Assembly: GCA_964187785.1 (NCBI GenBank)
Contig: OZ076409.1
Location: forward strand, 75,704,001-75,768,000
Length of the DNA stretch: 64,000 nucleotides
From: Amphiscolops sp. MND2022
Taxonomy: Eukaryota
Direction of reading: 5' to 3'
In this document: positions 1 to 64,000 of the stretch, piece by piece
How the letters are laid out: each line of letters begins with the position of its first letter
Numbering within the stretch: the stretch's first letter is position 1
Translations under genes and position numbers: made by a program
The notes under the pieces: generated by a model
The model's input: only the letters and a program-made list of their open reading frames with translations
Told to the model about the DNA's origin: nothing
Database searches by the model: none

Positions 1-736
1 TGGTATTTTATGGATAAAAGTACCTGGAAGGTGTTTTAAAGGCCTCCAGAAGTGAACATAGTCATGAAACTTTGTGGGGGGTAACGGTATATAGCACCGG
101 AAGTCCAAACCGTTAGTTACAGAATAGGTTTTTTGGTTTCAAAATGTCTTTAGGCGTAGTTTTGTGGGTTGAATCGTCATAATATCAACTAATACGGACT
201 TTTTTCGGAAATAAAATTTTTTCACATTAGTTTCAGGGACCTCCAATGTTTCAGTCAACATAACCGTTACATTTTGATAGCCTTTCAAGTTGGCCTGGTG
301 TCAACTTGGAAGGGCTATCCGTCTAAAATCGTTAATCAAGAGTGTTTTTGGGTAGGTATATGTTGCATTAGTACCAATTAGAGCTTCATCAACAGTTTGC
401 CAACGGCAAAAACGATGTCGTGATAATTCCGTTATAAGAATATTAATTAACAAATTGTTTCCAAAGTTGATTTTTTCCATTCGAAATGTGTCCTAATGCC
501 ACCAAATTGAATAAAATAATAAATGGTATTGACTAAACCTAAATAACATTGAAAAAGAAGCTCAACATTTTTAATAGGTCTCATTATGGAAGCTGAAACC
601 TCACGTTTTAACTTAATTAACGTCAACGCCACATACTTTACATCAACGCCCACCGTCTGTGGGCATGCCGAGGCATGCCCTTCGACGACGTATACCAATT
701 ACATATATATCCACACCCACCCGCGGTAGCAGCTAG
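1..736 (+). mobile_element. Partial (3') cassette with a GATAGCCTT-type palindrome, related in motifs to 19733-21124
   Basis: Its body does not match the 1.3 kb family. It has the palindrome GATAGCCTTTCAAGTTGG...CAACTTGGAAGGGCTATC (276-319), CCGGAAGT (97-104) and the standard 3' end (CAACGCC x2, GGGCATGCCGAGGCATGCCC, CTAG). Confidence 0.65.
661..680. promoter_or_regulatory. Conserved palindrome GGGCATGCCGAGGCATGCCC; 19/20 match to the p53-family response element (RRRCWWGYYY x2); 34 copies, one before each CTAG junction
   Basis: The half-sites GGGCATGCCG and AGGCATGCCC have zero spacer. The motif also forms a 9-bp inverted repeat. It is invariant apart from the AGGCATGCCGAGGCATGCCT variant. 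Function is not demonstrated. Confidence 0.55.
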
Positions 737-1154
737 GTGGCCGTGTCTTTTCGACGTGCTTTTGCATTGAGGAGTGGGTAGGGCCCCGCGACGACCTAGA
801 AAAATTGGATGCTCACCGAAACGTGCAGAATTCTACGAGATCTCATAGTTTGAGCCATACGATTTTGCTGAAATTTGGCATGTGGCCTGGAATTGGTGAG
901 TAGGTAAAACGTGTAGGAGGTGATTTTTCCCAAATTCCACTGTGAGACGAGATATGGGCAAATAACGGTCCCAAAAATGGCAAAAATGCACTTTTTTCAA
1001 CTTTGTCAGCCCATATCTCGTTCCCATGTGCCCGGAGCGGGACGCGTTAAGCTGATTATAAACTCTAGGGTGTTGAGGCTGTACGGGGAAGTCAGGCCCG
1101 TTCCGATCGGACTTGTAGTCTTGGAGAAATAACGGTATTTTTGGGGAACCTTTT

Positions 1155-1303
1155 CTAACGGTCCAGCTTATCTTTGCCATTTTTTCGAAAATGTACTCGC
1201 CTAAAGGCCTCCCCCTGGCCGAATTTACTCCCAGCAAAACCATTTGGCCCTAAATACGGAGTTTCAGCGTTCCAGCATTCCCGGGCGAAAAGTTGTGGGA
1301 CTT
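1155..1303 (+). repeat. ~150 bp highly conserved central block of the 1.3 kb family (example copy)
   Basis: CTAACGGTCCAGCTTATC...CATTTGGCCCTAAATACGGAGTTTCAGCGTTCCAGCATTCCCGGGCGAAAAGTTGTGGGACTT recurs in nearly every 1.3 kb unit while the flanks differ by subtype. Confidence 0.9.
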
Positions 1304-1706
1304 GGAAAATTTTCAAAAATTTTCAAAAAATTTTTTTTTCGTTTTCCGGGCCCCCAATGAAGGGGAAACGACCCCCAACCAGTATTTTGAGTGAATTCAT
1401 GTGGAAAGCCCATGTTTGGAGGAGAAAAATGCCGTTTAGCACATCTTTTTATCTTGACTCAACGTTGACTTATGACGTTTTGAATGTGATGTAAGGATGT
1501 AGGAGGCATGTGATAAGTTGATGTTTTGAGTCTTTATCTCATATGAAAGCGGTTGAGATGCAAGCTGTCCTGCTCAAAACGTCTTTCGTGGTAATTTTCC
1601 AGTGCACCAATACCCTTTGGTGTCATATAAACATACTTTTTGTCGATATATTAACAATTTTAATGTATTTATTCCAATTTTTATTATCTTATAACTCAAA
1701 ACAGTT

Positions 1707-1749
1707 GAGTACATTTCATCTCCCTTTCGGGGGAGATGAGAATGTACTC
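1707..1749. other. Long imperfect palindrome GAGTACATT(T/C)CATCTCCC-loop-GGGAGATGAGAATGTACTC (example; one per complete 1.3 kb unit, about 250-290 bp before the junction)
   Basis: Two ~18-bp arms with one unpaired base in the right arm. The arms are conserved and the loop varies between subtypes. Confidence 0.9.
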
Positions 1750-4700
1750 GCTAAAGACCTAGCGCCATGACCAAAAGTTTGAAACCCACGTTTTTTTATC
1801 TTCTTACAGACTTGTTTTTGTATTTTTTCGGAATTTTTTAAAAATTAAAATACTTGAAATATATTACTTGACTTTACTACTACAACCCACCTCCAACGAC
1901 AACGCCCCCCTGCTTGCATCAACGCCCGCCGTCCGTAGGCATGCCGAGGCATGCCTTTCGACGACGTATGCCAAATACCCAATGCCACGCTGTCATTATC
2001 GCTAGGTGGCCGTGTCTTTTCGACGTGCTTTTGCATCGAGGAGTGGGTAGGGCCCCGCGACGACCTAAAAGAATTGGATGCTCACCGAAACGTGCAGAAT
2101 TCTACGAGATCTCATAGTTTGAGCCATACGATTTTTCTGAAACTTGGCATGTGGCCTGGAATTGGTGAGTAGGTAAAACGTGTAGGAGGTAATTTTTCCC
2201 AAATTCCATTGTGAGAGGAGATATGGGCAAATAACGGACCCAAAAATGGGGAAAATGCACTTTTTTCAAGTTTGTCAGCCAATATCTCATTTCCACGTGC
2301 CCGTAGCGTTCCGCACGTGGACATCAATATTGCTCAGCGCTGTTGGAGGAGTGCGTGGACAAATTTTGGTTTAAATCGGACTTAAACTTGACGAGAAATT
2401 AACGGTTTTTTGGGCGTTTCCGGGGTAAATTTTTTAACGGTCCAGCTTATCTTTGCCATTTTTTCGAAAATGTACATGCCTAAAGGCCTCCCCCTGGCCG
2501 AATTTACTCCCAGCAAACCCATTTGGCCCTAAATACGGAGTTTCAGCGTTCCAGCATTCCGGGGCGGAAAGTTGTGGGACTTGGAAAAATTTCAAAATTT
2601 TTTCAAAAATTTTTTTCCCGTTTTCCGGGCCCCCAATGAAGGGGAACGACCCCCCAACCAGTATTTTGAGTGAATTCATGTGGAACGCCCATGTTTGGAG
2701 GAGAAAAATGCCGTTTAGCACATCTTTTTATCTTAACTTGACATTGACTTATGACGTTTTGAATGTGATGTTAGGATATATGAAGCATGTTAAAAGTTGA
2801 AGTTTTGAGTCTTTATCTCATCGGAAAACCATTGAGATACAAGCAGTTTTGCTAAAAACGATTTTCATTGTAGGTTAGCACAGTATTAGTACACTTTGAT
2901 GTCATTTGAGTATTTTTTTCTTCTATATAATAACTGTTTTTATGTATTTATTCCAATTTATCTCATCTTTTAACATCAAGCAGTTGAGTACATTTCATCT
3001 CCCTTTCGGGGGAGATGAGAATGTACTCGCTAAAAACCTAATGCTATGGCGCCAATGTTTGGATGAGAAGTTTTCTATGCTTTGAAAAAAGTTATTTTTA
3101 ATTACTTGATTTTTTAAAACAATAATTAACATGAAGTACATTACTTGCTCCTACTACTACCACCATACATCTCTAACGTCAACGCCCCCTGCTTGCATCA
3201 ACGCCCCATCGTCCGTGGGCATGCCGAGGCATGCCCTTCGACGACGTATGCCAAATGCCCAGTGCCACGCAGTCTTTCCCCGCTAGGTGGCCGTGTCTTT
3301 TCGACGTGCTTTTGCATTGAGGAGTGGGTAGGGCCCCGCGACGACCTAGAAGAATTGGATGCTCACCGAAACGTGCAGAATTCTACGAGATCTCATAGTT
3401 TGAGCCATACGATTTTTCTGAAATTTGGCATGTGGCCTGGAATTGGTGAGTAGGTAAAACGTGTAGGAGGTGATTTTTCCCAAATTCCACTGTGAGACGA
3501 GATATGGGCAAATAACGGTCCCAAAAATGGCAAAAATGCACTTTTTTCAACTTTGTCAGCCCATATCTCTTTTCCAGGTGCCCGTAGCGTTCCGCACGTG
3601 GACATCAATATTGCTCAGCGCTGTCGGAGGAGTGCGTGGACAAATTTTGGTTTAAATCGGACTTAAACTTGACGAGAAATTAACGGTTTTTTGGGCGTTT
3701 CCGGGGTAAATTTTTTAACGGTCCAGCTTATCTTTGCCATTTTTTCGAAACTGTACATGCCTAAAGGCCTCCCCCTGGCCGAATTTACTCCCAGCAAACC
3801 CATTTGGCCCTAAATACGGAGTTTCAGCGTTCCAGCATTCCGGGGCGGAAAGTTGTGGGACTTGGAAAAATTTCAAAATTTTTTCAAAAAATTTTTTTCC
3901 CGTTTTCCGGGCCCCCAATGAAGGGGAACGACCCCCCAACCAGTATTTTGAGTGAATTCATGTGGAACGCCCATGTTTGGCGGTGAAAAATGCCGTTTAG
4001 AACATCTTTTTATCTTAACTTGACATTGACTTATGACGTTTTGAATGTGATGTTAGGATATATGAAGCATGTTAAAAGTTGAAGTTTTGAGTCTTTATCT
4101 CATCGGAAAACCATTGAGATACAAGCATTTTTGCTAAAAACGATTTTCACTGTAGGTTAGCAGAGTATTAGTACACTTTGATGTCATTTGAGTATTTTTT
4201 TCTTCTATATAATAACTGTTTTTATGTATTTATTCCAATTTATCTCATCTTTTAACATCAAGCAGTTGAGTACATTTCATCTCCCTTTCGGGGGAGATGA
4301 GAATGTACTCGCTAAAAACTTAATGCTATGGCGCCAATGTTTGGATGGGAAGTTTTCTATGCTTTGAAAAAAGTTATTTTTAATTACTTGATTTTTTAAA
4401 ACAATAATTAACATGAAGTACATTACTTGCTCCTACTACTACCACCATACATCTCTAACGTCAACGCCCCCTGCTTGCATCAACGCCCCATCGTCCGTGG
4501 GCATGCCGAGGCATGCCCTTCGACGACGTATGCCAAATGCCCAGTGCCACGCAGTCTTTCCCCGCTAGGTGGCCGTGTCTTTTCGACGTGCTTTTGCATC
4601 GAGGAGTGGGTAGGGCCCCGCGACGACCTAGAAGAATTGGATGCTCACCGAAACGTGCAGAATTCTACGAGATCTCATAGTTTGAGCCATACGATTTTTC

Positions 4701-7700
4701 TGAAATTTGGCATGTGGCCTGGAATTGGTGAGTAGGTAAAACGTGTAGGAGGTAATTTTTCCCAAATTCCATTGTGAGAGGAGATATGGGCAAATAACGG
4801 ACCCAAAAATGGGGAAAATGCACTTTTTTCAAGTTTGTCAGCCAATATCTCATTTCCAGGTGCCCGTAGCGTTCCGCACGTGGACGTCAATATTGCTCAG
4901 CACTGTTAGAAGAGTGCGTGGACAAATTTTGGTTCAAATCGGACTGAAACTTGGCGAGAAATCAACGGTTTTTTGGGCAATTCCGGGGTAAATTTTTTAA
5001 CGGTCCAGCTTATCTTTGCCATTTTTTCGAAAATGTACTTGCCTAAAGGCCTCCCCTGGCCCAATTTCCTCCCAAAAAAACCATTTGGCCCTAAATACGA
5101 GGTTTCAGCGTTCCAGCATTTCCGGGCGAAAAGTTGTGGGACTTAGAATTTTTTCAAAAATTTTCAAATTTTTTTTTCGTTATTTGGGCCCCCAAAGTGG
5201 GGGAAAGGACCCCCCAACCATTAATTTGTGTGAATGCATGTGCAAAGCCCTTGTTTTGACGAGAAAAATACCGTTTCGAACATCTTTTTATTTTAACTTG
5301 GCGTTGACTTAGGACGTTTTGAATGTGATGTTAGGATGTGTGAGGCATGTGAAAAGTTGATGTTTTGAGTCTTTATCTCATGTGAAAGCGATTGAGATAC
5401 AAGCTGTTTCGCTCAAAACGGGTTTCATCGTAATTTCGCAGTGCATCATTGACCTTTGTTGTCTTTTGAAGAATTTTTTCTTCATATAACAACAATTTTG
5501 GTGTGTTTCTTCCAATTTTTCTCATCTTCTAATTTGAAACAGTTGAGTACATTTCATCTCCCTTTCGGGGGAGATGAGAATGTACTCGCTAAAAACCTAG
5601 TGCTTTTGCGCCGCAATGTTTGCAAAAGTTGTTATTATTGCTGTTCCATCAGCATTTTCTAACTGACTTTTTTAAAACTATCAATTAACTTGAAGTACAT
5701 TACTTGAACTTACTACTAATACCATACATCTCTAACGACAACGCCCCCCTGCTTGCATCAACGCCCACCGTCCGTGGGCATGCCGAGGCATGCCCTTCGA
5801 CGACGTATGCCAAATGCCCAGTGCCACGCAGTCATTCTCGCTAGGTGCCGGGATTTCCATTCGATAAGGAATTCTGCGCGTGTGGGTAGGGCCCCTGGCG
5901 CGCTCCTGTGTTTTCGGTTTTCCTACTCCTAAATAGACCCCCTGAATTCCGGGATCTCCTAAACTATCCATACGATTTGGCTGAAATTTGGCACACGTAC
6001 CCCCCTCGGCACGGTGAAGATGATTTCCTACTGACGTTTTTCCCGCTAAACATTTTTTGTTGACCAAAATAACGGTTTTTGGGGTAAAATTTTGAACTTT
6101 TTTTAAATTTCATCTTATATCTCGCCACGGGTACACGCTAGCGCTTCCAAACCTTGCTGACGAAAGTTTGCAAACTGTCTCAGGAATGCTGTGTGAAATT
6201 TTCAGCTCAATCGGACTCAAACTCGAGGAGATATAGCGTTTTCCCGGAGCGGGGGGGTTTCAATTTTCTAACGGTCCAGCTTATCTTTGCCATTTTTTCG
6301 AAAATGCACTCGCCTAAAGGCCTCCCCTGGCCGGTTTTATTCCCGACAAAACCATTTGGCCCTAAATACGGAGTTTCAGCGTTCCAGCATTCCCGGGCGA
6401 AAAGTTGTGGGACTTAGAAAAGTTCAAAAATTTTCAAAAAAAATTTTTTCCGTTATTTGGGCCCTCAAAGTGGGGGAAAAGACCCCCCAACCAGTAAAGC
6501 AAGTGAATGCATGTGGAAAGCCCTTGTTTAGACGAGAAAAATGCCGTCTAGAACGTCTTTTTATCTTAACTTGACATTGACTTTTGTCGTTTTGAAGGTG
6601 ACCGTTAGATACGGAAAATTGATGTTTTGAGTATTTATCCCATCTGAAAGCCATTGAGATACAACATGTTTTGCTCAAAACGTGTTTCATTGCAGTTTCG
6701 CTGTCCATTATCACCCTTTGGTGTCTTTTCACGTAATTTTCGTTTCTATAATAACAATTTTTTTGTGTATTTATTCATTTTATTCTCATCAAATAACTTG
6801 AAACAGTTGAGTACATTCCATCTCCCTTCCCGGGGGAGATGAGAATGTACTCGGTAAAGGTCAGGAACTACGGTCTATATCTTCCACAACACAAAAGGGA
6901 TTGCAAATGGTTTCAGTTTGTCGCAGAAAACTTCTTTTTGCCCTCTGTGACTCGACAAAATGAACGTTTCTTACTTACTTTGAAACTCAGCATACCACAA
7001 CTCATCTCTAACGTCAGCGCCCCCCTACTTGCATCAACGCCCACCGTCCGTGGGCATGCCGAGGCATGCCCTTCGACGACGTATACCAAGATATACCTGG
7101 AGCGCGGTAGCCGCTAGGTGCCGGGATTTCTATTCGATAAAGTATGTGGCGCGCCTTGGGTAGGGTCCCTTGCGCGCTCTTGGGTATGGTGTTCACCAGC
7201 TAGGAAACAGGGGTCGATTTTTCGGGATCTCCTAAACTAGCCACACGATTTGGCTGAAATTTGGCACACGTACTCCCCTCGGCACGGTGAAGATGATTTC
7301 CTACTGACGTTTTTCCCGCAAAATTTTTTTTGTTGTCCAAAATAACGGTTTTTGGGGTAAAATTTTGATTTTTTTTTAAATTTTATCTCATATCTCGCCA
7401 CCGGTTTACGCTAGCGCTTCGAAACCCTGCTAAAGAAAGTTTGCAAACTGTCTCAGGAATGCTGTGTGAAAATTTCAGCTCAATCGGACTTAAACTCGGG
7501 GAGATATAGCGTTTTTCCGGAGCGGGGGGGTTTCATTTTTCTAACGGTCCAGCTTATCTTTGCCATTTTTTCGAAAATGTACTCGCCTAAAGACCTCCCC
7601 TGGCCGGTTTTATTCCCAGCAAAACCATTTGGCCCTAAATACGGAGTTTCAGCGTTCCAGCATTCCCGGGCGAAAAGTTGTGGGACTTAGAAAATTTCAA

Positions 7701-8405
7701 AAATTTTCAAAAAAAATTTTTTCGGTTTTCCGCCCACCCCCCTAGGGGAAAAGACTCCCCAACCAGTAATTTGAGTGAATTCATGTGGAAAGGCCATGTT
7801 TAGAGGAGAAAAATGCCGTTTAGAACGTCTTTTTATCTTGGCTCAACGTTGACTTATGACGTTTTGAAGGTGATGTTTGGAGGTGTAAAGCACGTGAATA
7901 GTAAACGTTATGAGTATTTATCTGATCTGAAAGCCATTGAGATGCAATATGGTTTGCTCAAAACGTAATTCATGGCAGTTTGGCAATCAATCAACACCCT
8001 TTGTTGTCGTTTGACATACTTTTTTGTTGTTATAATAAAAAATTTTGTGTATTTATTCATTTTTTTCTCATCAAATAACTTGAAACAGTTGAGTACATTC
8101 CATCGCCCCCTTCCGGGGGAGATGAGAATGTACTCGCAAAAAGCACCGAACTACGGCCCTTACCTTCCCGAGCTACGCAGTATAAGGATTACATATTGGT
8201 TCCGACATTTTCATAGAGTTAAATCTTGGTAATCTGTCTGGATATGCAGAAAAACCAGCACGTGCTTTTTTATACCAAGTTGCTTACAACGACAATTATT
8301 TTATATCAACGCCCCCATATTTATCAACGCCCCCCGTCCGTGGGCATGCCGAGGCATGCCCTTCGACGACGTGCACCAAGATATACCCCAAGCGCGTTAG
8401 CCTAG

Positions 8406-9691
8406 GTGGCCGGAAATTTTTTTTTCATCAAAATCTTTGCCATTGGGGGAGGGGCCCCGGATGGCCAGTAGTACGGGATAGCTTCCTACCAAATCCAGGC
8501 GGAAAAAACGTGATTTTGGAAACTAGCCGTCAGAATTTGCTCAAATTTTGCATACGGCTTCCTATAACAATCCTAAGAACTAATCCCTACTGGCATTTTG
8601 CCCGAAAAACGCAAAAAGTTGGTCAAAATCTTAGTTTTTTGGTCAAAAAATGGCGTTTTTTCGAAAAAAAAATTTTTCAGAGACAATTACTCGTAACTGG
8701 TTCACCCAGCGCAAAAACGCCTAGCTGATTTATTGTTGGGCACTTCATGAGGAGTACGTATACAAATTTTCGTCTAGATCGGAAAAAAAATGACTAAGTA
8801 TTAGCCGGAATTCGGACGCATTTTTTCGCAAATTTTTGAAAACCTAGTCTATCTCTGCCGTTTTTTGCCCAGATTTTTTTCCAGGTCCTCTCCTAAAGGC
8901 CTCCCCTGGCCGGTTTACTTCCCAGAAAAACCATTTGGCCCTAAATACGGAGTTTCAGCGTTCTAGCATTCCCGGGCGAAAAGATGTGGGACTTAGAAAA
9001 AATTCAAAATTTTTCAAAAAATTTTTTTTTCGTTTTCCGGCCCCCCAATGAAGGGGAACGACCCCCCAACGAGGATTTTTGGTGAATTCACGTGGAAAGG
9101 CCTTGTTTTGTGGAGCAAATTGCCGTTTAGAGCGACTTTTTATCTTAACTTGACGTTGACGTCTGTCGTTTTGAATTTGATATTAGTATGTGTTGAGCAT
9201 GTGAAAAGTTGATGATTTCAGTTGTTCTCTCGTGTTCAAGCCATTGAGATACAAGCGGTAGTGATCAAAATGTGATTTATCGCAATTTGGTGGTGCTTTT
9301 GGTGTATTTTGATTCTTTTAAATAAAAAGTTGTTCTTTATATATTTGGTGTATTGATTCAAATGAACAAGAAACAGTTGAGTACATTTCATCTCCCCCCT
9401 TGTGGGGGAGATGAGGATGTACCCGCTAAATGACACGCACAATGGCCCAATTTTATTTTTATGCGACGTTTTCTAGGCTTTTGCGCAAGCCCACTAAAAT
9501 TTAGACTGGTTTCCTTTTCTTTTACTCCAAAATTTTCCGTACTAACCACCTTACGCACCATCAGCTCATCGTAACATCTGTAACGCCAACGCCACATACT
9601 CTCACTAACGCCCACCGTCTGTGGGCATGCCGAGGCATGCCCTTCGACGACGTATGCCAAATAGCGCCACAGGGCGCCCAATTTTGTCTAG
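8406..9691 (+). mobile_element. Distinct subtype unit (starts GTGGCCGGAAATTTT); near-identical dispersed copies at 21125-22411 and 29181-30465
   Basis: The three non-adjacent copies match along their full length (1285-1287 bp) and have different neighbours. Confidence 0.85.
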
Positions 9692-12600
9692 GTGGCCGTG
9701 TCTTTTCGACGTGCTTTTGCATTGAGGAGTGGGTAGGGCCCCGCGACGACCTAGAAGAATTGGATGCTCACCGAAACGTGCAGAATTCTACGAGATCTCA
9801 TAGTTTGAGCCATACGATTTTTCTGAAATTTGGCATGTGGCCTGGAATTGGTGAGTAGGTAAAACGTGTAGAAGGTAATTTTTCCCAAATTCCACTGTGA
9901 GAGGAGATATGGGCAAATAACGGACCCAAAAATGGCAAAAATGCACATTTTTCAACTTTGTCAGCCAATATCTCTTTTCCAGGTGCCCGTAGCGTTCCGC
10001 ACGTGGACATCAATATTGCTCAGCGCTGTTGGAGGAGTGCGTGGACAAATTTTGGTTTAAATCGGACTAAAACTTGACGAGAAATTAACGGTTTTTTGGG
10101 CGTTTCCGGGGTAAATTTTTTAACGGTCCAGCTTATCTTTGCCATTTTTTCGAAAATGTACATGCCTAAAGGCCTCCCCCTGGCCGAATTTACTCCCAGC
10201 AAACCCATTTGGCCCTAAATACGGAGTTTCAGCGTTCCAGCATTCCGGGGCGGAAAGTTGTGGGACTTGGAAAAATTTCAAAATTTTTTCAAAAATTTTT
10301 TTTCCCGTTTTCCGGGCCCCCAATGAAGGGGAACGACCCCCCAACCAGTATTTTGAGTGAATTCATGTGGAAAGCCCATGTTTGGAGGAGAAAAATGCCG
10401 TTTAGCACATCTTTTTATCTTAACTTGACATTGACTTATGACGTTTTGAATGTGATGTTAGGATATATGAAGCATGTTAAAAGTTGAAGTTTTGAGTCTT
10501 TATCTCATCGGAAAACCATTGAGATACAAGCAGTTTTGCTAAAAACGATTTTCATTGTAGGTTAGCAGAGTATTAGTACACTTTGATGTCATTTGAGTAT
10601 ATTTTTCTTCTATATAATAACTGTTTTTATGTATTTATTCCAATTTATCTCATCTTTTAACATCAAGCAGTTGAGTACATTTCATCTCCCTTTCGGGGGA
10701 GATGAGAATGTACTCGCTAAAAACCTAATGCTATGGCGCCAATGTTTGGATGGGAAGTTTTCTATGCTTTGAAAAAAGTTATTTTTAATTACTTGATTTT
10801 TTAAAACAATAATTAACATGAAGTACATTACTTGCTCCTACTACTACCACCATACATCTCTAACGTCAACGCCCCCTGCTTGCATCAACGCCCCATCGTC
10901 CGTGGGCATGCCGAGGCATGCCCTTCGACGACGTATGCCAAATGCCCAGTGCCACGCAGTCTTTTCCCGCTAGGTGGCCGTGTCTTTTCGACGTGCTTTT
11001 GCATTGAGGAGTGGGTAGGGCCCCGCGACGACCTAGAAGAATTGGATGCTCACCGAAACGTGCAGAATTCTACGAGATCTCATAGTTTGAGCCATACGAT
11101 TTTGCTGAAATTTGGCATGTGGCCTGGAATTGGTGAGTAGGTAAAACGTGTAGGAGGTGATTTTTCCCAAATTCCACTGTGAGACGAGATATGGGCAAAT
11201 AACGGTCCCAAAAATGGCAAAAATGCACTTTTTTCAACTTTGTCAGCCCATATCTCGTTCCCAGGTGCCCGGAGCGGGACGCGTTAAGCTGATTATAAAC
11301 TCTAGGGTGTTGAGGCTGTACGGGGAAGTCAGGCCCGTTCCGATCGGACTTGTAGTCTTGGAGAAATAACGGTATTTTTGGGGAACCTTTTCTAACGGTC
11401 CAGCTTATCTTTGCCATTTTTTCGAAAAGGTACTCGCCTAAAGGCCTCCCCCTGGCCGAATTTACTCCCAGCAAAACCATTTGGCCCTAAATACGGAGTT
11501 TCAGCGTTCCAGCATTCCCGGGCGAAAAGTTGTGGGACTTGGAAAATTTTCAAAAATTTTCAAAAAATTTTTTTTTCGTTTTCCGGGCCCCCAATGAAGG
11601 GGAAACGACCCCCCAACCAGTATTTTGAGTGAATTCATGTGGAAAGCCCTTGTTTTGACGAGAGAAATACCGTTTAGAACATCTTTTTATCTTGACTCAA
11701 CGTTGACTTATGACGTTTTGAATGTGATGTAAGGATGTAGGAGGCATGTGATAAGTTGATGTTTTGAGTCTTTATCTCATATGAAAGCGGTTGAGATGCA
11801 AGCTGTCCTGCTCAAAACGTCTTTCGTTGTAATTTTCCAGTGCACCAATACCCTTTGGTGTCATATAAACATACTTTTTGTCGATATATTAACAATTTTA
11901 ATGTATTTATTCCAATTTTTATTATCTTATAACTCAAAACAGTTGAGTACATTTCATCTCCCTTTCGGGGGAGATGAGAATGTACTCGCTAAAGACCTAG
12001 CGCCATGACCAAAAGTTTGAAACCCACGTTTTTTATCTTCTTACAGACTTGTTTTTGTATTTTTTTGGAATTTCTTAAAAATTAATATACTTGAAATACA
12101 TTACTTGACTTTACTACTACAACCCACCTCCAACGACAACGCCCCCCTGCTTGCATCAACGCCCGCCGTCCGTAGGCATGCCGAGGCATGCCTTTCGACG
12201 ACGTATGCCAAATACCCAATGCCACGCTGTCATTATCGCTAGGTGGCCGTGTCTTTTCGACGTGCTTTTGCATTGAGGAGTGGGTAGGGCCCCGCGACGA
12301 CCTAGAAGAATTGGATGCTCACCGAAACGTGCAGAATTCTACGAGATCTCATAGTTTGAGCCATACGATTTTTCTGAAATTTGGCATGTGGCCTGGAATT
12401 GGTGAGTAGGTAAAACGTGTAGAAGGTAATTTTTCCCAAATTCCACTGTGAGAGGAGATATGGGCAAATAACGGACCCAAAAATGGCAAAAATGCACATT
12501 TTTCAACTTTGTCAGCCAATATCTCTTTTCCAGGTGCCCGTAGCGTTCCGCACGTGGACATCAATATTGCTCAGCGCTGTTGGAGGAGTGCGTGGACAAA

Positions 12601-14815
12601 TTTTAGTTTAAATCGGACTAAAACTTGACGAGAAATTAACGGTTTTTTGGGCGTTTCCGGGGTAAATTTTTTAACGGTCCAGCTTATCTTTGCCATTTTT
12701 TCGAAAATGTACATGCCTAAAGGCCTCCCCCTGGCCGAATTTACTCCCAGCAAACCCATTTGGCCCTAAATACGGAGTTTCAGCGTTCCAGCATTCCGGG
12801 GCGGAAAGTTGTGGGACTTGGAAAAATTTCAAAATTTTTTCAAAAATTTTTTTCCCGTTTTCCGGGCCCCCAATGAAGGGGAACGACCCCCCAACCAGTA
12901 TTTTGAGTGAATTCATGTGGAAAGCCCATGTTTGGAGGAGAAAAATGCCGTTTAGCACATCTTTTTATCTTAACTTGACATTGACTTATGACGTTTTGAA
13001 TGTGATGTTAGGATATATGAAGCATGTTAAAAGTTGAAGTTTTGAGTCTTTATCTCATCGGAAAACCATTGAGATACAAGCAGTTTTGCTAAAAACGATT
13101 TTCATTGTAGGTTAGCAGAGTATTAGTACACTTTGATGTCATTTGAGTATATTTTTCTTCTATATAATAACTGTTTTTATGTATTTATTCCAATTTATCT
13201 CATCTCATTTTAACATCAAGCAGTTGAGTACATTTCATCTCCCTTTCGGGGGAGATGAGAATGTACTCGCTAAAAACCTAATGCTATGGCGCCAATGTTT
13301 GGATGGGAAGTTTTCTATGCTTTGAAAAAAGTTATTTTTAATTACTTGATTTTTTAAAACAATAATTAACATGAAGTACATTACTTGCTCCTACTACTAC
13401 CACCATACATCTCTAACGTCAACGCCCCCTGCTTGCATCAACGCCCCATCGTCCGTGGGCATGCCGAGGCATGCCCTTCGACGACGTATGCCAAATGCCC
13501 AGTGCCACGCAGTCTTTCCCCGCTAGGTGCCGGGATTTCTATTCGATAAAGTATGTGGCGCGTGTGGGTAGGGTCCCTGGCGCGCTCTTGGGTATGGTGT
13601 TCACCAGCTAGGAAATAGGGGTCGATTTTTCGGGATCTCCTAAACTAGCCACACGATTTGGCTGAAATTTGGCACACGTACTCCCCTCGGCATGGTGAAG
13701 ATGATTTCCTACTGACGTTTTTCCCGCAAAATTTTTTTTGTTGTCCAAAATAACGGTTTTTGGGGTAAAATTTTGAATTTTTTTTAAATTTCATCTTATA
13801 TCTCGCCACGGGTTTACGCTAGCGCTTCAAAACCCTGCTAAAGAAAGCTTGCAAACTGTCTCAGGAAGGCGGTGTGAAATTTTCAGCTCAATCGGACTTA
13901 AACTCAGGGAGATATAGCGTTTTTCCGGAGCGGGGGGGTTTCATTTTTCTAACGGTCCAGCTTATCTTAGCCATTTTTTTGAAAATTTACTCGCCTAAAG
14001 ACCTCCCCTGGCCGGTTTTATTCCCAGCAAAACCATTTGGCCCTAAATACGGAGTTTCAGCGTTCCAGCATTCCCGGGCGAAAAGTTGTGGGACTTAGAA
14101 AATTTCAAAAATTTTCAAAAAGTTTTTTTTTCCGTTTTCGGCCCTCCCCCCCTAGGGGAAAAGACCCCCCAACCAGTAATTTGAGTGAATTCATGTGGAA
14201 AGGCCATGTTTAGAGGAGAAAAATCTCGTTTAAATCGTCTTTTTATCTTTATTCAACGTTGACTTATGACGTTTTGAAGGTGATGTTTGGAGGTGTGAAG
14301 CACGTGAAAAGTAAACGTTATGAGTATTTATCTGATCTGAAAGCCATTGAGATGCAACCTGTTTTGCTCAAAACGTAATTCACATCAGTTTGGTAGTCAA
14401 TCAACACCCTTTGTTGTCATTTGACATCTTTTTTTTGTTGATATAAGAAAAAATTTCGTGTATTTATTCATTTTTTTCTCATCAAATAACTTGAAACATT
14501 TGAGTACATTCCATCCCCCCTTCACGGGGGAGATGAGAATGTACTCGCAAAAAGCCCCGAACTACGGCCCTTACCTTCCTGAGCTACGCAGTATAAAGAT
14601 TGCATATTGGTTCCGACATTTTGATAGAGTTATATCTTGGTAATCTGTCTGAGTATGCAGAAAAACCAGCACGTGCTTTTTTATACCAAGTTGCTCACAA
14701 CGACATTTATTTTATATCAACGCCCCCATATTTATCAACGCCCCCCGTCCGTGGGCATGCCGAGGCATGCCCTTCGACGACGTATACCAAGATATGTTCG
14801 AGCGCGTTAGCCTAG

Positions 14816-15857
14816 GTGCCGGGATTTCTATTCGATAAAGTATGTGGCGCGTGTGGGTAGGGTCCCTGGCGCGCTCTTGGGTATGGTGTTCACCAGCTAG
14901 GAAATAGGGGTCGATTTTTCGGGATCTCCTAAACTAGCCACACGATTTGGCTGAAATTTGGCACACGTACTCCCCTCGGCACGGTGAAGATGAAGAAGAT
15001 CCAGCTTATCTTAGCCATTTTTTCGAAAATGTACTCGCCTAAAGACCTCCCCTGGCCGGTTTTATTCCCAGCAAAACCATTTGGCCCTAAATACGGAGTT
15101 TCAGCGTTCCAGCATTCCCGGGCGAAAAGTTGTGGGACTTAGAAAATTTCAAAAATTTTCAAAAATTTTTTTTCGGTTTTCCGCCCTCCCCCCCGAGGGG
15201 AAAAGACCCCCAACCAGTAATTTGAGTGAATTCATGTGGAAAGGCCTTGTTTAGAGGAGAAAAATCCCGTTTATATCGTCTTTTTATCTTTATTCAACGT
15301 TGACTTATGACGTTTTGAAGGTGATGTTTGGAGGTGTGAAGCACGTGAATAGTAAACGTTATGAGTATTTATCTGATCTGAAAGCCATTGAGATGCAATA
15401 TGGTTTGCTCAAAACGTAATTCATGGCAGTTTGGCAATCAATCAACACCCTTTGTTGTCAATTGACATCTTTTTTTGTTGATATAAGAAAAAATTTTGTG
15501 TATTTATTCATTTTTTTCTCATCAAATAACTTGAAACAGTTGAGTACATTCCATCCCCCCCTTCACGGGGGAGATGAGAATGTACTCGCAAAAAGCCCCG
15601 AACTACGGCCCTTACCTTCCTGAGCTACGCAGTATAAAGATTGCATATTGGTTCCGACATTTTCATAGAGTTAAATCTTGGTAATCTGTCTGGATATGCA
15701 GAAAAACCAGCACGTGCTTTTTTATACCAAGTTGCTTACAACGACAATTATTTTATATCAACGCCCCCATATTTATCAACGCCCCCCGTCCGTGGGCATG
15801 CCGAGGCATGCCCTTCGACGACGTATACCAAGATATACATCGAGCGCGTTAGCCTAG
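14816..15857 (+). mobile_element. 1.3 kb-family unit with an internal ~250 bp deletion
   Basis: It is 1042 bp versus 1289 bp for sister units. The breakpoint ...GGTGAAGATGA-AGAAGA-TCCAGCTTATC lies at about 14993-15000. Confidence 0.9.
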
Positions 15858-47148: not shown

Positions 47149-47187
47149 TAGCCTTCCAAGTTGGCCTTCGGCCAACTTGGAAGGCTA
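47149..47187. other. Perfect 18-bp-arm palindrome TAGCCTTCCAAGTTGGCC-TTC-GGCCAACTTGGAAGGCTA
   Basis: Identical copies at 54128-54166, 59027-59065 and 63921-63959. It lies about 1 kb before the unit end. Confidence 0.95.
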
Positions 47188-48189
47188 GCACTCCAAATAC
47201 CAAAAAACAGGAGTTCCTTTATTCTCAAAATAGCTGTGGACAGTTTCATTCAACTTTCTTTCCTCACGTTAATTGATAAATTCAGAACATAAACATTTCC
47301 ATTCGCTATAAGGAGATCATAATTGAGTTCCATAAAAACATCTTTCATTGTGTCGCTTAAAAATACCATAAAAACTAACTTGAAACATATGAATTGTATG
47401 TGGAACGTACATTCAATTTACCAGTGAGTGTCTACCCTTATTGGCTCCACCAAATCCTCTACCCCTCCACTAGACAGTACGTTACATCATACGTTGATGT
47501 ATTTCATAGTGGTGACATAGGGCCGAAAAAATAACGAAATGGAGTGTATGCATTGCTAATGCTATTAAGTCAGCCAATTGTGGTAGGAAAGGTTCAATAC
47601 TACAGAAAATATCTATTCCAACTGAAAATGATTTGGGGCAAACAGATGGCACACAAAAATACCTCAATAATTTTCACCAATCAATTTCTTCCACAAAAAC
47701 TTTTGTGTCCGATGGTGTATAATTTCCTAATTTGGAATCAGCCAGTCACGTCATTTTCACATCTCAGCTCGGTCATAACAGAGCGTTCTTTTTTGAAATT
47801 GTCTCTACCCAATTTCACTTAACGAGGCTGCTACGTCCCCTATTTGGAGTGTTATTAGTGTTTATAAGGGATTTATCACTCTAATGAACATATACTTCTA
47901 ATGTTGAAACTCTTTCACTTTTCTTTGTAAATTGTTAAAGTAGAACATTGCTGTTATTCAGCAGGAACTCGCTTTGGCTTGCAGAATGATGGAAAATAAA
48001 TGACAAGTCGCCCTGTAAGGCACCACGTGTCGTGGGGATGACAAATATGAAATAAGTTGAACACAACAAAGACTACTTTTGTCAACAGAAGGGAAAACGA
48101 ATATTTTAATTTTGAAAATTTTTATGTTTTTTAATACACATTTTCCTCGCATCTCGGCAGTGCAACTGCAACAACCTCGCCTCCACTGG

Positions 48190-49225
48190 GTGGTCCGGGG
48201 TAGTTCCCCACATTATTTAGTGCGAGGCCGGGGAGGGTCCCGATGCCGAGCTTAATTTTCGCGTGTCGTACTATATCCTTTAGCACACCAGTCAAAAAAC
48301 GGCGATTTTCGAATTGAACCGATAAAACTTCTTTAAACTTTGCATGTGTACTTATCTTGCCGATGTACAAATGATGTTCTGCTGGTCAAACATGATCCTA
48401 TTACTTGGCGGGAAGTTATGAGCAAATGATCGGTTTTTTCACCCTGTTTCGGTACTTTTTCGCTGCGCTATCTGCAGCATGTGAATACAATTGGCTGATA
48501 CTTTGCATGCGAGGCATAAATGATGTCAGGTGTGTGCATGCCAAAAATCATTAGGCTGGTGATACTAGGCTGGGAGATAGAAGTAGAAAAAGTAGTGGAA
48601 AATTGTGAATTCTCCGGTCATCGCGTCATAACTTCCGAACTTTGTATGAGATGGTGTTTAATGGAGCGGTAGCAGTACACTCGAGGTGGTTTCAACATCG
48701 CGTGGTCAGGATAAAAAAATAAAAAATGAAAAGTTCTACAAAAGTTCTACCAAAATTCTAAAAATTTAGAATTTTTTCAAAAATAAAGATTTTCTCATTT
48801 TTCGATGCTTTTTCACATTTTGAACGCAAAAAAGAAGTGACTCTGCACTTACGGTGACAATTAAAGGGGTTTCAGAGGTCAGAAAAGGTAATTGAGACAA
48901 TACTGAACTGTTGCTTCAGTTGTTGGAACTGAATGTGTAAGTATATTTTTGTTCAATTGTAAGTTACAACATCACCGTTCTCCGGAGGACCGCGAAGCAG
49001 TTCGGAGGAAGAACGGTGATGACAAACTACATTGCCTGTACATCACCTGTGATGGTTCGCGCGTGCGTTATAGGATGAATTATTGCAGATGAAAGAAAGC
49101 CGTTTTGAGCAAGTTTTGTACAATGCATAACAATTGATGGTCGTTATCCTGTGAGTTCCGCCTCATTGCTTACCTCTACAATGTCATTACGGCCTTTCTC
49201 GTGATTGTACCTTTGCCTCCACTGG
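48190..49225 (+). mobile_element. 1036 bp short cassette S1
   Basis: Starts GTGGTCCGGGGTAGTTCC and ends GTACCTTTGCCTCCACTGG. Its 5' part shares motifs with the 4.9 kb 5' end. It contains the palindrome CATCACCGTTCT...AGAACGGTGATG (48970-49021). Confidence 0.85.
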
Positions 49226-50273
49226 GTGGTCCGGGGTAGTTCCCCACATTATTTAGTGCGAGGCCGGGGAGGGTCCCGATGCCGAGCTTAATTTTCGCGT
49301 GTCGTACTATATCCTTTAGCACACCAGTCAAAAAACGGCGATTTTCGAATTGAACCGATAAAACTTCTTTAAACTTTGCATGTGTACTTATCTTGCCGAT
49401 GTAAGAATGATGTTCTGCTGGTCAAACATGATCCTATTACTTGGCGGGAAGTTATGAGCAAATGATCGGGTTTTTCACCCATTTTCGGTACTTTTTCGCT
49501 GCGCTATCTGCAGCATGTGGATACAATTGGCTGATACTTTGCATGCGAGGCATAAATGATGTCAGGTGTGTGCATGCCAAAAATCATTAGGCTGGTGATA
49601 CTAGGCTGGGAGATAGAAGTAGAAAAAGTAGTGGAAAATTGTGAATTTTCCCGTCATCGCGTCATAACTTCCGATCTTTGGATGAGATGGTGTTTACTTG
49701 AGCGGTAGCAGTGCAGTCGATGTGTTTTCAACATCGCGTGGTCAGGATAAAAAATAAAAAATAAAAAAGTTCTACAAAAGTTCTACAAAAATTCTAAAAA
49801 GTACGAATTTTTCCAAAAAAAAAGATTTTTTCATTTTCCATTGTATTTCTATACCAGGAATTCAGAAATCACATTATTTTTCGTGTCAACGGCGTCAAAA
49901 TGGGTTGTTTTTTAATATTGACCGCTTTCACCAGCTTGATGTACCAGTTTCGGTAAGTATTTGAAAAATATTCAGGGTTGAGGCAAATGCATAAGTAGCA
50001 CGATTTTAAAACGTCATTTTATTTGTCACCGGTGTTCCGAGGGATGCACAGCAGCACGCAGGAACAACGGTGACCCGGAAGGAAGGCTGTAGATACTTCT
50101 TACGACCGAAGGCAGTCACTGTTTAATTTTCTTCGACATGATTATGTACGTCGTTGCGATGTGCATCGCCAAAAATTCACATCAGTGACCCCAAAGTGGA
50201 ACAATTTATACATGAATTGAGAACAGACAGTACCGTTCGGCCCCCTGGTAATTGGTACCTTTGCCACCACTGG
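49226..50273 (+). mobile_element. 1048 bp short cassette S2
   Basis: The first ~600 bp are near-identical to S1 and the next ~420 bp differ. It contains the palindrome GTCACCGGTGTTCC...GGAACAACGGTGAC (50025-50074) and ends GTACCTTTGCCACCACTGG. Confidence 0.85.
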
Positions 50274-60066: not shown

Positions 60067-63000
60067 GTGGTCCGGGGTGGTCCCCCACATGAACTATTGC
60101 GAGGCCTGGGGAGGGTCCCGGAGCCGAGCGCTATATACAAAATGCATCCATGGTAGACCGGGAGAAAAACAAGCGATTTTCCAATCTAACCGTTAGATTT
60201 CCATGAAACTTTGCACACATACATAAAATCAAATTCTAAGAACTTTTTTCCCCTGACGTATCATGATTGAAACATTTGTTGAAAAGTTATGTGCAAATGA
60301 TCGTTTTTTTTTGGCCATTTTTCGCATTTTTCACGCAGCAGCTCCACACTTTACGCTATGCATTTGGCCCATTTTTTGCGTGCGAGGCATAAATGATGTC
60401 ATGTTTGCACATGCCAAAAATTATTTCTCAATTCGCAACAGGAGTGGAGATATGGCGGATAATATTGGCGGAAAATTTAACGAATACGAAAATTTGCACA
60501 TATTTGGCCAACATTTGTTTCAAAAATGACAAAAATTGAAAAGTCCGCCGATTGCGTTGAAACTTGGCACACAGGTAGTAGAACAAATTTTAAGAACTTT
60601 TTTCTCCTGACGTTTTTCCGAAAAATTGCATCTTCAACCTATATTTGCAATATTTCGGGTTTTTTGATTCGAGGTGATTTATCACTCACATATTCAAAGT
60701 CCATTTTCAGCATGAAGCAACGCAGATACCGGCAATGTGCACATATTGCAAAATCTTCAACGGCCAACTGTCTACCAAACGGTCCAAAAAAATTTTCCCC
60801 TCGGGCCCAATCAAAGTGGCCAAAAGTGGCAAAATGTTTTTTCCAACAGTATCACCATTACAAAATTGATGATTTGACAAGGAGGAACGGTCCGCACGGT
60901 CTCGGACCATTAGGTGAAAAAGTGTCAGTGAGTTATGGTGACGACCAAAATGACATTGGTTGACCTCCAAGAGGCCTCTGGTAAAATTTGATTTTTTTGA
61001 GTCACGGTCCGAGTTGATCTGTTACGTTGTATCAACATTTCATAATCATGTTACTCATAACCGAGTACAGATAGCACCGTGGGTCATCTTTATCAAAATG
61101 AACGTTGGGCAGCGGTCTAACGATTGAGTGCAAAAAATATACCTTAGCTGCCATAGTGAAAGAAAAAAATTTTCAGAAGTGTTGTTTTCAATTTTTCATG
61201 TCGACTCGCAGTTACAAAAATGTGATTTTCTCTTCAGGAACGGTCCGAACGGTCTGGTACCATAAGATAAAAATTTGTCAGTGTGACATGGTGGCGCCCA
61301 AAAACACATCAGAACACTGGTAGGAAGCGTCTGAACGATTTTCGAATTTTCACGTGGGTCCGAGAGTTATAGTGTCACATCGTAACTACATTTCGGGTAT
61401 GCATATCTCCTCACAGAGTACAGATAGCATCATGGGTCACCTTTTCGAAAAAGAACGTGGGCCACTGGTCTATCGATTGGTCATAAAAAGTTTTCAGTCA
61501 CTGCTGCACGGCGTGAATAATATGCCAATATGGGGTATTTAGCACTTTTTTGCACGACTCGGACCTACAAAAGGCCCATTTCTGCTCCACCGACGGTCCG
61601 TACGGTCTTCGACCATAAGGTGAAAAAGTGTCAGTGTGCTATGGTGACGCCCAAAAACTCATCAGTTTACTTGTAGAGTGCTTCTGAAAAGTTTTGGAAT
61701 TTTTAGGTGAGTCCGAGTGTTATAGAGAGTTATGTTGTCACATCATAACTACATTTCGGGTATGTATATCTCTTGACAGAGTACAGATAGCAACATGGGT
61801 CATCTTTTGGAAAATAAACGTGGGCCACTGGCCTACCGAATGGTGATAAAAAGTTTTCACCAGTTGCTACAGGGAGTGATAAAAGTGCTTACATGCGTTA
61901 CTTAGCATTTTTTCAGGCGACTCGTACTTACAAAAAGCTCATTTGCTCGCCAACAACGGTCTCTACGGTCTCCGACCATAAGGTCAAAAAAATTTTGTGA
62001 GCTATGGTGACGCCCAAGAACCCATCAGTTTACTTGTGGGATGATTCTGTAAAAATTTAGTGTTTTCGTGCAGACTATGTTACATATTACATTGGGAACC
62101 GTGTTTTTTTCTCTCCAAAATCATGTTTTTGAGTGCCCAAAAACTGTTTTTAAAGCCCAGTAGCCATCTAAAATGTACTTTTGCATAACATGGGGTGTGA
62201 GTAACGTGAAGAAAGTGCTCACTGTGGATTTGGAGTTATGTCGAAAAAATCACCTGCCATTAGACGTTACATTACAGAAAATCGTACCTTACATATCGAT
62301 TCATGGGTTGAGTCAAAAACAACTAAAGTTCTTTTTCAGTCAATCAAAACTCTTTTTTGTTCACAACCAAGTGTACTGCTGACGTCGAACCTGTTTTGAC
62401 CTTCCACAATGGTTATAGTGCAATTTTGAGGTACAAAAGCCTCGTTGACAAACAAAATTCCAAGATGAAATTGCTTTCCAAATCATTTTTTGAAGTATAG
62501 GAACGCCATTTTTAGCCGACAACCATCAAATATCCACTTCTCTTGGCCCAGTGGCTTGTGAAAAATACAACTGGGCATTGACAAGGCACAAGGACCTTAC
62601 TTCGAGTAGTCATGTCCCACAATATTTGCTAATCGATAGCAAATTTTGTTGAAAATTGATACAACATCACATTTTTGGTGGACTCGAAATGACAAATTGG
62701 AGCTTCTGCAGCAACTATAGGCTTTTAGTGCAACTCAGTGGCACTGTTATTTAGGAAAATACGGTCTACAGTAGTTTCATGCTACTTTTTCAGAATCTGA
62801 GGTACATAAAAATATCATTCTGAATAGACATATGACTTAAACATTGGAATTTTTCCAGTTGTGTCACCACTTTTTTGGTATCAGCGGTCCTACCAACACT
62901 GTTTTTGGTCTAAAACTAAACCCGAGGCTCAACCAAGATGTATATCAGACTTGTAAAATCAATGCAAGGACTTTCGGCATGTCAAAAGTACTGATAAGAA

Positions 63001-64000
63001 GAGAAACTTCTCAAAAAATCATGTTATGTGTCATATTCCACTCCACGTTTTTTAATCGGTGCTTGTCGGTTATGGTATTAACGCTCAACAACGACCTCAC
63101 TGACAACAAACAACTCGTTTATAGTCATTAAAAGTGTTTATAATACAACCATGCTTGGTCTGGACACATTTTTTATCCCATTCGTTCGTAACAATGAAAA
63201 ATTTTTCCCCAATAACCCAATTTTTGTCAGGTCGAAAACTGATTTCTCGTGTTTTGAACAACATTATTGTGTCTGGCGTAACCTGTGGCCTCCAAAATAC
63301 TGAAAAAGAGATATATGACTGGTATCAAATGCTTCAGTGACATGTGAGCCACGATAACACGTTTTGCAAAGAAAAATTCAACTTTCAACTGAAAATTTCG
63401 AAGACACATTTTCACAATAGAAACAGAATATATAACAATCTAACCTAATTCCCGTCAATTACTATTAATATAGTATCATTGTTGCGAATATGAGGTCCAT
63501 ACAGGGGTGTATGGGAAAAATATGGCGCATAAAGCATTGTGTAACACAAAGTTTACCAAAGTACTAAGAATTTGTCACGGTTTTTTTGCGCTCTAACTCA
63601 AAAATTTGATGGTGTAAACATCAATGAGCAGTTCAATTAGGTACGGTTTATCAACTGTGTATCTTTTTCAAAGTGCACGATCTTTCTGTTGTTCCAAACT
63701 CCTTTGTTAGGGCTGAAAAGTGTCATATGTTTTACAACGCAATGTTCATTAAAAGATACATTAGCAAAGACCGAATCAACTTCACAGCAGGTAATCAAAT
63801 TCTCAATACGTCTTTCAGTACTTGGATTTCGCAGACTATATAGATTTCATTTGCATTTTTATAAAGACTTTATAACTGAATCTTGCATTTTTATAAAGAG
63901 CTTATAAAAAATTTTCGTGATAGCCTTCCAAGTTGGCCTTCGGCCAACTTGGAAGGCTAACACTACAAACACCAAAAACCAGGAGTTCCTTTAATCTCAA
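60067..64000 (+). mobile_element. 4.9 kb cassette, subtype beta (second copy, cut by the window edge)
   Basis: Matches the unit starting at 50274, including the palindrome at 63921-63959. Confidence 0.85.

Follow-up and report, generated by a model that had tools for sequence, protein, structure and literature searches.

Organization of the Array

The window analysed here, a stretch of 64,000 nucleotides from Amphiscolops sp. MND2022 (contig OZ076409.1, called C1 below; C1:75,704,001-75,768,000 in a genome of 1.07 Gb), is occupied by head-to-tail repeat units that meet at one short motif, CTRG|GTG. We think that it probably belongs to a mixed array in which rolling-circle transposons from a distinct Helitron-like lineage are stacked by targeting the junctions between those already present. 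CTRGGTG is found 39 times on the + strand and four times on the − strand, all four of the latter inside units; in shuffled versions of the window, both strands together gave a mean of 7.65 and a maximum of 14, and none of 100 shuffles reached the observed 43. The original prediction, made from the letters of the window, had counted 40 junctions in one orientation with neither spacer nor copy-specific duplication. This is upheld: the 40th junction reads CTTG|GTG (26574/26575), all 40 share one strand, and no spacer or copy-specific duplication was seen at any window junction inspected. It was also confirmed that the ...GCGCGTTAGCCTAG end precedes five different starts, at 8402, 14812, 17143, 36911 and 43288.

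Most units measure ~1.27–1.32 kb; others are of 1.39 kb, 1.04–1.05 kb and 4.9 kb, and a 2.0-kb unit is cut by the window start. The several length families with unalignable bodies that had been proposed hold for the 1.0-kb (CTGG-ended), 1.4-, 2.0- and 4.9-kb types, which are largely unalignable to the ~1.3-kb units, with alignment confined to the ends. They do not hold within the ~1.3-kb units, which are one diverged group whose members align at ~66–99% identity over about one-third to the full length.

All window features given here lie on the + strand. Positions 1..736 hold the 3′ portion of a non-autonomous unit of 1,994 bp, whose start lies 1,258 bp to the left of the window and whose end is CTAG. 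It is followed by 34 head-to-tail non-autonomous units (737..43291), mostly of several subfamilies of the ~1.3-kb group, with the format GTG[G/C]...CTAG and without a long open reading frame (ORF). Among them are a unit of 1,042 bp that derives from a 1.29-kb subfamily by internal deletion and has both ends intact (14816..15857), and a 1,392-bp unit with a body of its own (19733..21124), which has only terminal and short internal motifs in common with its neighbours. A 4.9-kb non-autonomous unit, GTGG...CCACTGG, occupies 43292..48189, with all stop-to-stop frames of at most 102 aa; frames above 102 aa are absent from 43000-50300. Two ~1.04-kb units with a CCACTGG end follow (48190..50273), and then three more 4.9-kb units up to 64000 (50274-55168, 55169-60066 and 60067 to beyond the window), 88–98% identical to the first. 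The 4.9-kb units contain degenerate 363-bp internal repeats (44465-45286, 51568-52264, 56344-57165 and 61362-62037), and related sequence is present near the 5′ end of a solo autonomous element at C5:24.28 Mb. An imperfect palindrome of ~47 bp (47145-47191; 275-319) recurs in the otherwise unalignable 4.9-, 2.0- and 1.4-kb units. A comparison with Rfam gave no match.

Two subterminal motifs recur in the units. A 5′ box, GG(G/T)AGGGNCC, sits at unit nt 26-70 (for example at 2045..2056) and is carried by 234 of the 245 pieces examined; it would be a candidate origin or binding site. A 3′ hairpin, GGGCATGC-CGAG-GCATGCCC (for example at 3217..3236), lies ~50 nt before CTAG; the 1.3-kb and 1.4-kb units have it in a strong form, and in the 1.0-kb and 4.9-kb units it is weak or unclear.

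The array continues unbroken through the 100 kb examined on either side of the window (264 kb in all). The original prediction had envisaged a single dedicated landing-pad locus, which is not supported: there are many arrays of the same kind on many contigs, and small ones have arisen at ordinary sites of the host. Solos and small arrays lie, for example, at C2:59.29 Mb, C5:23.87 Mb, C1:29.53 Mb and C10:57.84 Mb. The biggest clusters form blocks of megabase size, at C1 70.5-76.5 Mb, C2 102-103.9 Mb (contig end) and C3 2.4-3.9 Mb. At two loci (L073, L076) some array members begin with GTGAG instead of GTG[G/C], and junction counts are therefore lower bounds. At C1:23,977,000-23,980,000 an array abuts another of opposite orientation, the sole orientation switch seen. 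At C1:76,005,438 (L101, L126) an array ends as CTAG|TTAAG, with a frame of the endonuclease/reverse-transcriptase type of long interspersed nuclear elements 2.7 kb further on; this is probably the 3′ end of the array of the window, 132 kb in between being unread.

Element Ends and Target Site

The units have the format 5′-GTG[G/C]...CTRG-3′. GTG[G/C] also served as the rule for splitting units, and the GTG start is confirmed by solo copies. Whether a junction carries CTAG or CTGG tracks the upstream unit; therefore, the tetramer is the element's 3′ end. For the host side, 11 5′ boundaries of arrays and solos, unselected for their flank, could be read: four show CTAG, two CTGG, three CTTG, one ATAT and one TTTA. 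CTDG is found in nine of these 11 flanks (P about 8e-18), its background frequency over 70.9 kb of host flanks being 0.8%. In this search 12 loci were extended, four of them without a recognisable start and three running into another unit, and 12 unextended loci were startless. T is also found at −3 in each of eight further starts that were chosen because their flank is non-G. In host 3′ flanks, T is the second base in 17 of 19 (P about 1e-7); these 19 come from 25 of 63 non-G ends, after removal of five array-internal variants and one duplicate.

In host DNA, the preferred target reads CT[A/G/T]G^[A/G/T]T, and it is used without duplication. The 3′ flanks are variable. One solo copy has CTGG on its left and CTAG on its right, and because the two tetramers differ the target cannot have been duplicated, i.e., there is no target site duplication (TSD). 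As the target is CTDG^DT and a junction is CTRG^GT, every junction recreates the target. Another solo copy (L106) directly follows host sequence ending in CTAG that we take to be tRNA-like.

Other readings of the ends were tried and rejected. An element with terminal inverted repeats and a 3-bp TSD fails since CCAC-TGG-GTGG fits the CTGG units only. A 4-bp CTAG TSD is contradicted by the unequal left and right tetramers of three loci (L078, L113, L071), and GTG as a strict target by the 63 ends that continue with non-G.

Exceptional joints were also met. At C10:57,840,026, 16 nt ending in CTGG separate two units, which reflects either two insertions at adjacent host targets or capture by 3′ read-through. 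In the window, a 5′ fragment of 314 bp (26261..26574), derived from a 1.3-kb subfamily, stops at an internal CTTG, forming the 40th junction, and a complete unit follows directly (26575-27892). This fragment, together with a 58-bp duplicated start, would fit premature termination, and both are reminiscent of FoHeli, for which multiple 5′ ends are described (PMC5148889). A premature stop at an internal CTTG was reported for Helraiser mutants (PMC4778049).

Autonomous Elements and Their Proteins

The original prediction had considered Helitrons and other HUH elements as well as tyrosine recombinases, and had recommended a search for longer elements with the same ends. Three long units are found in the 264 kb, all of them outside the window and with a GTG[G/C] start and a CTAG end like the small units: a 15.6-kb element at C1:75,621,742-75,637,322, a 12.05-kb element at C1:75,689,385-75,701,434, which is the nearest, its end lying 2.6 kb to the left of the window, and a 12.23-kb element at C1:75,839,108-75,851,337. 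They encode a Rep–helicase fusion (RepHel) and a second ORF, located at L041:467-7450 and 8011-8988, at L042:370-7419 and 8114-9040, and in L038/L043, all within C1:75.62-75.85 Mb. RepHel is a single frame in two of the three members (2,327 and 2,349 aa) and is spread over three frames, spliced or broken, in the third. Both single-frame proteins score above the cut-off of the Pfam families Helitron_like_N and PIF1, and the RepHels have the motifs HUH and YxxKY, the latter with two tyrosines, i.e., an HUH-Y2 Rep fused to a Pif1 helicase. In a PDB comparison of RepHel, Pif1 helicases alone were matched, Helitron transposase not being among the matches.

The C-terminus of RepHel is GIY-YIG nuclease-like. 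PF01541 is annotated on many of 61 homologues, and the GIY-YIG motif is present in 48 of 97 long homologues, 32 of these with the Arg. This assignment is weakened by the two nearest RepHels, whose domain falls below the Pfam cut-off and has no usual Arg. A single-sequence fold of the domain was unusable (pLDDT, the predicted local distance difference test, 35.7). The second ORF (308–325 aa) resembles OB-fold single-stranded DNA (ssDNA)-binding proteins (POT1, CTC1 and MEIOB at 0.90–0.92), a likeness that is a lead only, its recognition value being below the threshold of the tool. The 15.6-kb element (L038) has in addition a 357-aa frame without Pfam match (C1:75,624,510-75,625,580), presumably with OTU-protease-like motifs; three homologues (P0017, P0027, P0047) carry PF02338.

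The small units are tied to these elements by more than the terminal format. Four window units are 91–96% identical to autonomous elements over 800–880 bp of the 5′ end: the first 882 bp of a 1.32-kb unit (17147..18463) are 95% identical to the element at C1:75,839,108, a second copy of this unit (34311-35626) reaches 96%, and two 1.27-kb units (38196..40732) show 91% and 93.5% over ~800 bp to C1:75,689,385. The two ~1.04-kb units have 84–87% identity over 600–740 bp of the 5′ end to an autonomous element near C1:3.62 Mb. The autonomous 3′ end is matched by 35 of 40 window pieces, and the hairpin of the ~1.3-kb group is also present in the three autonomous elements of the array. The window units themselves gave no tblastn match to RepHel proteins. 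We think that the window units are almost certainly mobilised by RepHel. That the 12-kb units might be unrelated Helitrons nested in 1.3-kb units was considered and rejected, since their bodies replace, and do not interrupt, the middle of the small unit, and GTG...CTRG ends of their own are present in further autonomous families.

These proteins also bear on the label of integron-like cassette array in the original prediction, in which a tyrosine recombinase would insert circular cassettes at an att-like CTRG|GTG. The stacking of unrelated bodies is indeed precise, oriented and free of duplication, as that explanation would have it. However, elements with the same ends encode RepHel; the long frames are RepHel and its companion ORF, and no recombinase family was matched among the eight long frames scanned from the 264 kb, no whole-genome search for tyrosine recombinases being included. 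The asymmetric ends, with 3′ CTRG and hairpin, match rolling-circle elements. We consider a recombinase of this kind very improbable, and the HUH/helicase option, of Helitron type, is the one that was borne out.

In the genome, a stretch of Rep gave 120 matches (117 of 486 candidates scored), many of them in open frames of 2,100–2,850 aa. Three Rep matches are identical across two contigs, which suggests recent activity.

Junction Preference and Growth of the Arrays

The elements are piled on each other rather than scattered over the genome. Counted genome-wide, GGCATGCC-hairpin ends are followed by GTG[G/C] in 4,840 cases, by GTG[A/T] in 13 and, for CTAG only, by non-G in 63. GTG[G/C] is an element start in the arrays examined, and ~98% of the counted ends abut this start motif. 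By extrapolation, the genome holds the hexamer CTDG^DT at about 3.9 million sites, and at the 580 internal hexamers of the 245 pieces no nested insertion with remainder was found. With so many sites and so many internal copies unused, the hexamer alone cannot explain the preference for junctions.

Splitting at the motif and comparing neighbours, as had been recommended for the window, showed that near-identical units mostly have different neighbours. Over the 264 kb (142 units), 35 of 37 pairs with at least 99% identity differ in both neighbours, and therefore units mostly arrive singly. The flank identity of near-identical pairs ends at a median of 8–9 nt from the junction, vs 7–8 nt for all pairs. 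Small arrays of 6–8 units are already mixtures of different units, and in three small arrays there was no gradient in how closely the terminal units match their nearest relatives. Mixed arrays also house eight of the 10 RepHel loci sampled outside the three main clusters.

Growth of the arrays could also be explained with Helitron-like units that target the hexamer only, the stacks arising by rolling-circle concatemers, 3′ read-through, and unequal exchange or gene conversion at junctions. Tandem Helitrons are documented in bats, flies, rice and maize (PMC5148889), and an order of three units recurs here (window 18464-22411 and window-relative 129867-133821). Moreover, related subfamilies are adjacent above chance (45 vs 23.8 +/- 3.8 at 85% clustering), and more than 60 nt of downstream flank is shared by 10 of the 37 near-identical pairs vs 6.6% of all pairs; because of these two results, local duplication or local hopping also contributes. 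As the main route, however, we find this explanation unlikely. None of the 102 pairs with at least 98% identity share both neighbours, joins between 1.3-kb and 4.9-kb units share a 7-nt motif alone, which is insufficient for homologous exchange, subfamily-specific tails remain with their own bodies, and arrays of only 6–8 units are mixed.

Selection and chromatin might instead have shaped the arrays, if insertion at CTDG^DT were widespread and the host purged dispersed copies while tolerating or amplifying heterochromatic ones. The megabase size of the largest clusters and the presence of dispersed, often decayed copies would agree with this. Yet it leaves unexplained why 580 internal hexamers are unused when junctions are used, and HLE1 and HLE2 copies (the two main groups of Helitron-like elements, HLEs) are dispersed in the same genome. 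We regard it as even less probable than targeting by the hexamer only.

Junction-targeted single insertion is, in our judgement, the likely main mode of building the arrays. The autonomous members with the same ends, the CTDG^DT target and the neighbour data support the part of the original prediction in which a trans-acting enzyme adds non-autonomous elements at a site regenerated at each junction. Besides the excess of related neighbours and the shared downstream flanks, several observations weigh against this reading. Two of the 11 host 5′ flanks, and the eight selected starts, are not CTDG. Two truncated pieces end with CTTG and CCGG, and their parents continue with CT and AG, not [A/G/T]T. 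An empty (pre-insertion) allele was not found. Close to the insertion, the tested flank had no second copy: in the left flank of one solo (L074), 150 bp long, repeats matched the distal 83–95 nt only, and with the flanks of five solos or small arrays no paralogue spanning the site was present among the loci compared. The genome-wide counts leave out ends that continue with G but not GTG, and the 37 pairs are non-independent, many coming from one subfamily of ~10 members. Finally, the 4.9-kb units show weak similarity to the autonomous elements compared with them (66–72% over 130–370 bp).

Lineage and Relatives

For the position of RepHel, the genome itself supplied RepHels of HLE1 (two) and HLE2 (four), and a database search 22 further HLE2 (24 were picked, two being dropped for want of a motif). 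With FastTree on 55 rows and the Rep and helicase columns, the family stands apart from HLE1 and from the 26 HLE2 rows; with a mixture model on 20 rows, a long branch separates it with a support of 100/100. These trees speak less strongly than the support suggests, as the rows were chosen by seed similarity, HLE1 is represented by two rows of this genome, there is no outgroup, long branches meet, and plant and fungal HLE2 were not knowingly sampled. Helitron_like_N scores ~33 bits for the family vs ~200 for the HLE1 copies, in separate searches. On these comparisons, the lineage lies probably outside HLE1 and HLE2, and as a branch of the Helitron-like transposons it is apparently undescribed. 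The genome also contains dispersed copies of canonical HLE1 and of HLE2 with AP endonuclease, and so three Helitron-like lineages coexist.

The lineage is widespread, with 719 representatives at E<=0.001, the weak end of which may include other HLEs. Named relatives are from Perkinsus olseni and Hyalella azteca. In metagenomes, 39 loci were confirmed from 422 candidates; a search of viral contigs found no relatives, and a homologue search with the helicase region gave three matches. Perkinsus olseni proteins (P0015, P0012 cluster) are 42–44% identical to the Rep region vs 32–37% for many families within the genome, a closeness for which horizontal transfer or contamination is possible. One distant relative on a metagenome contig (L204:14215-19146) lies beside ankyrin and cyclin genes.

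Two metagenome loci have repeats next to RepHel. In L206, three motifs of ~110 bp that are related to each other come after RepHel, with bodies of 1.65 kb and 2.14 kb that are unrelated, and the second ORF of this locus shows a marginal match to the second ORF here (E 0.002); in L187, a 177-bp block is repeated before and after RepHel. Their sequences may hint at stacking in other organisms and are suggestive only. Most metagenome relatives argue the other way, having no stack in the DNA at hand or lying on contigs that are too short.

Comparison with Known Systems

The elements join the Helitron-like elements in the broad sense: the defining features of HLE1 and HLE2 that were looked for are mostly absent, while 3′ CTRR and the hairpin of HLE1 are present. 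With HLE1, such as Helraiser, they have in common the HUH-Y2 and Pif1 RepHel, the 3′ CTRR, a subterminal hairpin, the lack of a TSD, many non-autonomous derivatives and a second ORF that is ssDNA-binding-like. They differ from it in the 5′ end (TC in HLE1, GTG[G/C] here), in the target (A^T vs CTDG^DT) and in the distance of the hairpin from the end (11 nt vs ~50 nt in the hairpin examined), as well as in the RepHel of 2,100–2,850 aa with its GIY-YIG-like tail and separate branch in the trees. Helraiser reportedly showed no clustering near donors, in contrast to the ~98% of counted ends that abut an element start here.

The likeness to HLE2 (Helentron/Helitron2, FoHeli) consists of a large RepHel, an OTU domain in some relatives, and short duplicated 5′ ends (31–85 nt in FoHeli, PMC5148889; 58 nt here). 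A GIY-YIG domain is described for one Sphagnum HLE2 family (PMC11417382), with which the comparison is by description only. In contrast to the T^T target of HLE2, the target here is CTDG^DT. DUF6570, an HLE2 marker (PMC11417382), and AP endonuclease are absent from the RepHel frames scanned and from all 61 homologues, and are common in HLE2 matches. Terminal inverted repeats of HLE2 type were not found either: the − strand matches of units are internal palindromes only, although repeats below ~20 nt could be missed.

A third clade of HLE, from Paramecium, has a CCAA end and targets telomeric repeats (PMC13085455). It is also placed outside HLE1 and HLE2, with oriented, sequence-specific insertion, a dedicated genomic compartment and internal satellites (PMC13085455), and its main text mentions neither GIY nor head-to-tail arrays. 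The CCAA end and the telomeric target are not seen here, and among the RepHel matches none bore the name of Paramecium. The two lineages, set apart by description only, could be related.

The IS91 family differs in being prokaryotic, with a small Y2 transposase that has no fused helicase, whereas here the Pif1 helicase is fused. What it has in common with our elements is oriented insertion beside a tetranucleotide like the terminal site of the element itself. IS91, IS801 and IS1294 are described as moving by HUH rolling-circle transposition without TSD, with oriented insertion beside the tetranucleotide CTTG or GTTC; T is fixed in position 2 of the target, which resembles their own terminal cleavage site, CTCG or GTTC (PMC13181058). 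A transposase without fused helicase is also implied in PMC10288648, and large mixed self-stacked arrays go unmentioned for the family in the texts consulted. Replitrons (PMC10288648) are eukaryotic HUH elements that insert in an oriented manner downstream of RG, a short motif; they differ by a Y1 Rep without helicase and by terminal direct repeats, where our elements have Y2 and Pif1. In addition, the left CTDG here is host sequence and need not equal the right end. The system works like a Helitron with IS91-type target logic.

Tandem Helitrons have reportedly been treated by Xiong and by Dias, both in 2016. Helitrons in large local blocks are on record for Meloidogyne (PMC13404089), Xenopus (PMC12001565) and Hydractinia (PMC11934779); as presented in the texts consulted, they are HLE1 between satellites, short runs of 2–7 copies or minisatellites inside elements, and differ in this from base-precise stacks made of many unrelated families. 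Neither Helitron-like elements with GTG...CTRG ends nor base-precise mixed Helitron stacks appear in the main texts of the literature consulted (including PMC6431247, PMC8788227 and bioRxiv 10.64898/2026.09.17.752431), Repbase/Dfam and most subscription journals lying outside it.

Proposed Mechanism and Outlook

On the model of Helitron and IS91 biology, RepHel would nick at CTRG^GTG and peel off one strand, halting at the CTRG of the element itself, and the peeled strand would form a circle to be joined into another CTRG^GT; tandem junctions would look like such circles. Integration at a second copy of the sequence that the Rep protein itself nicks is familiar from the TrwC relaxase and from the Rep of adeno-associated virus. 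We infer that RepHel recognises the ends of resident elements, because the hexamer is insufficient, the 5′ box is carried by nearly all pieces, and the 1.3-kb group shares the 3′ hairpin. In the least certain step, the integration complex might read longer terminal sequences of the resident elements (the 5′ box and/or the 3′ end). Junctions would thereby out-compete millions of bare hexamers, and all families would stack singly and in one orientation, giving arrays of kilobases to megabases.

A further-reaching idea, to which we give slightly less than an even chance, is that these elements are one more branch of the Helitron-like transposons, spread across eukaryotes, and that their RepHel–GIY-YIG proteins target the ends of resident elements of any family and build megabase mixed arrays as a harmless niche, likewise in distant hosts. 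If this is true, it would amount to a self-regenerating, sequence-specific system of serial integration.

IS91-like target logic in a eukaryotic RepHel bears on how Helitrons choose their targets and on their kinship with bacterial rolling-circle elements. It also offers a route from a transposon to a megabase satellite-like block without the need for unequal crossover. Since many RepHel frames are intact, and sometimes identical, the system is testable in cells. If junction targeting is true, it would be a natural mechanism for the ordered, repeated and duplication-free insertion of cargo of 1–17 kb at one site.

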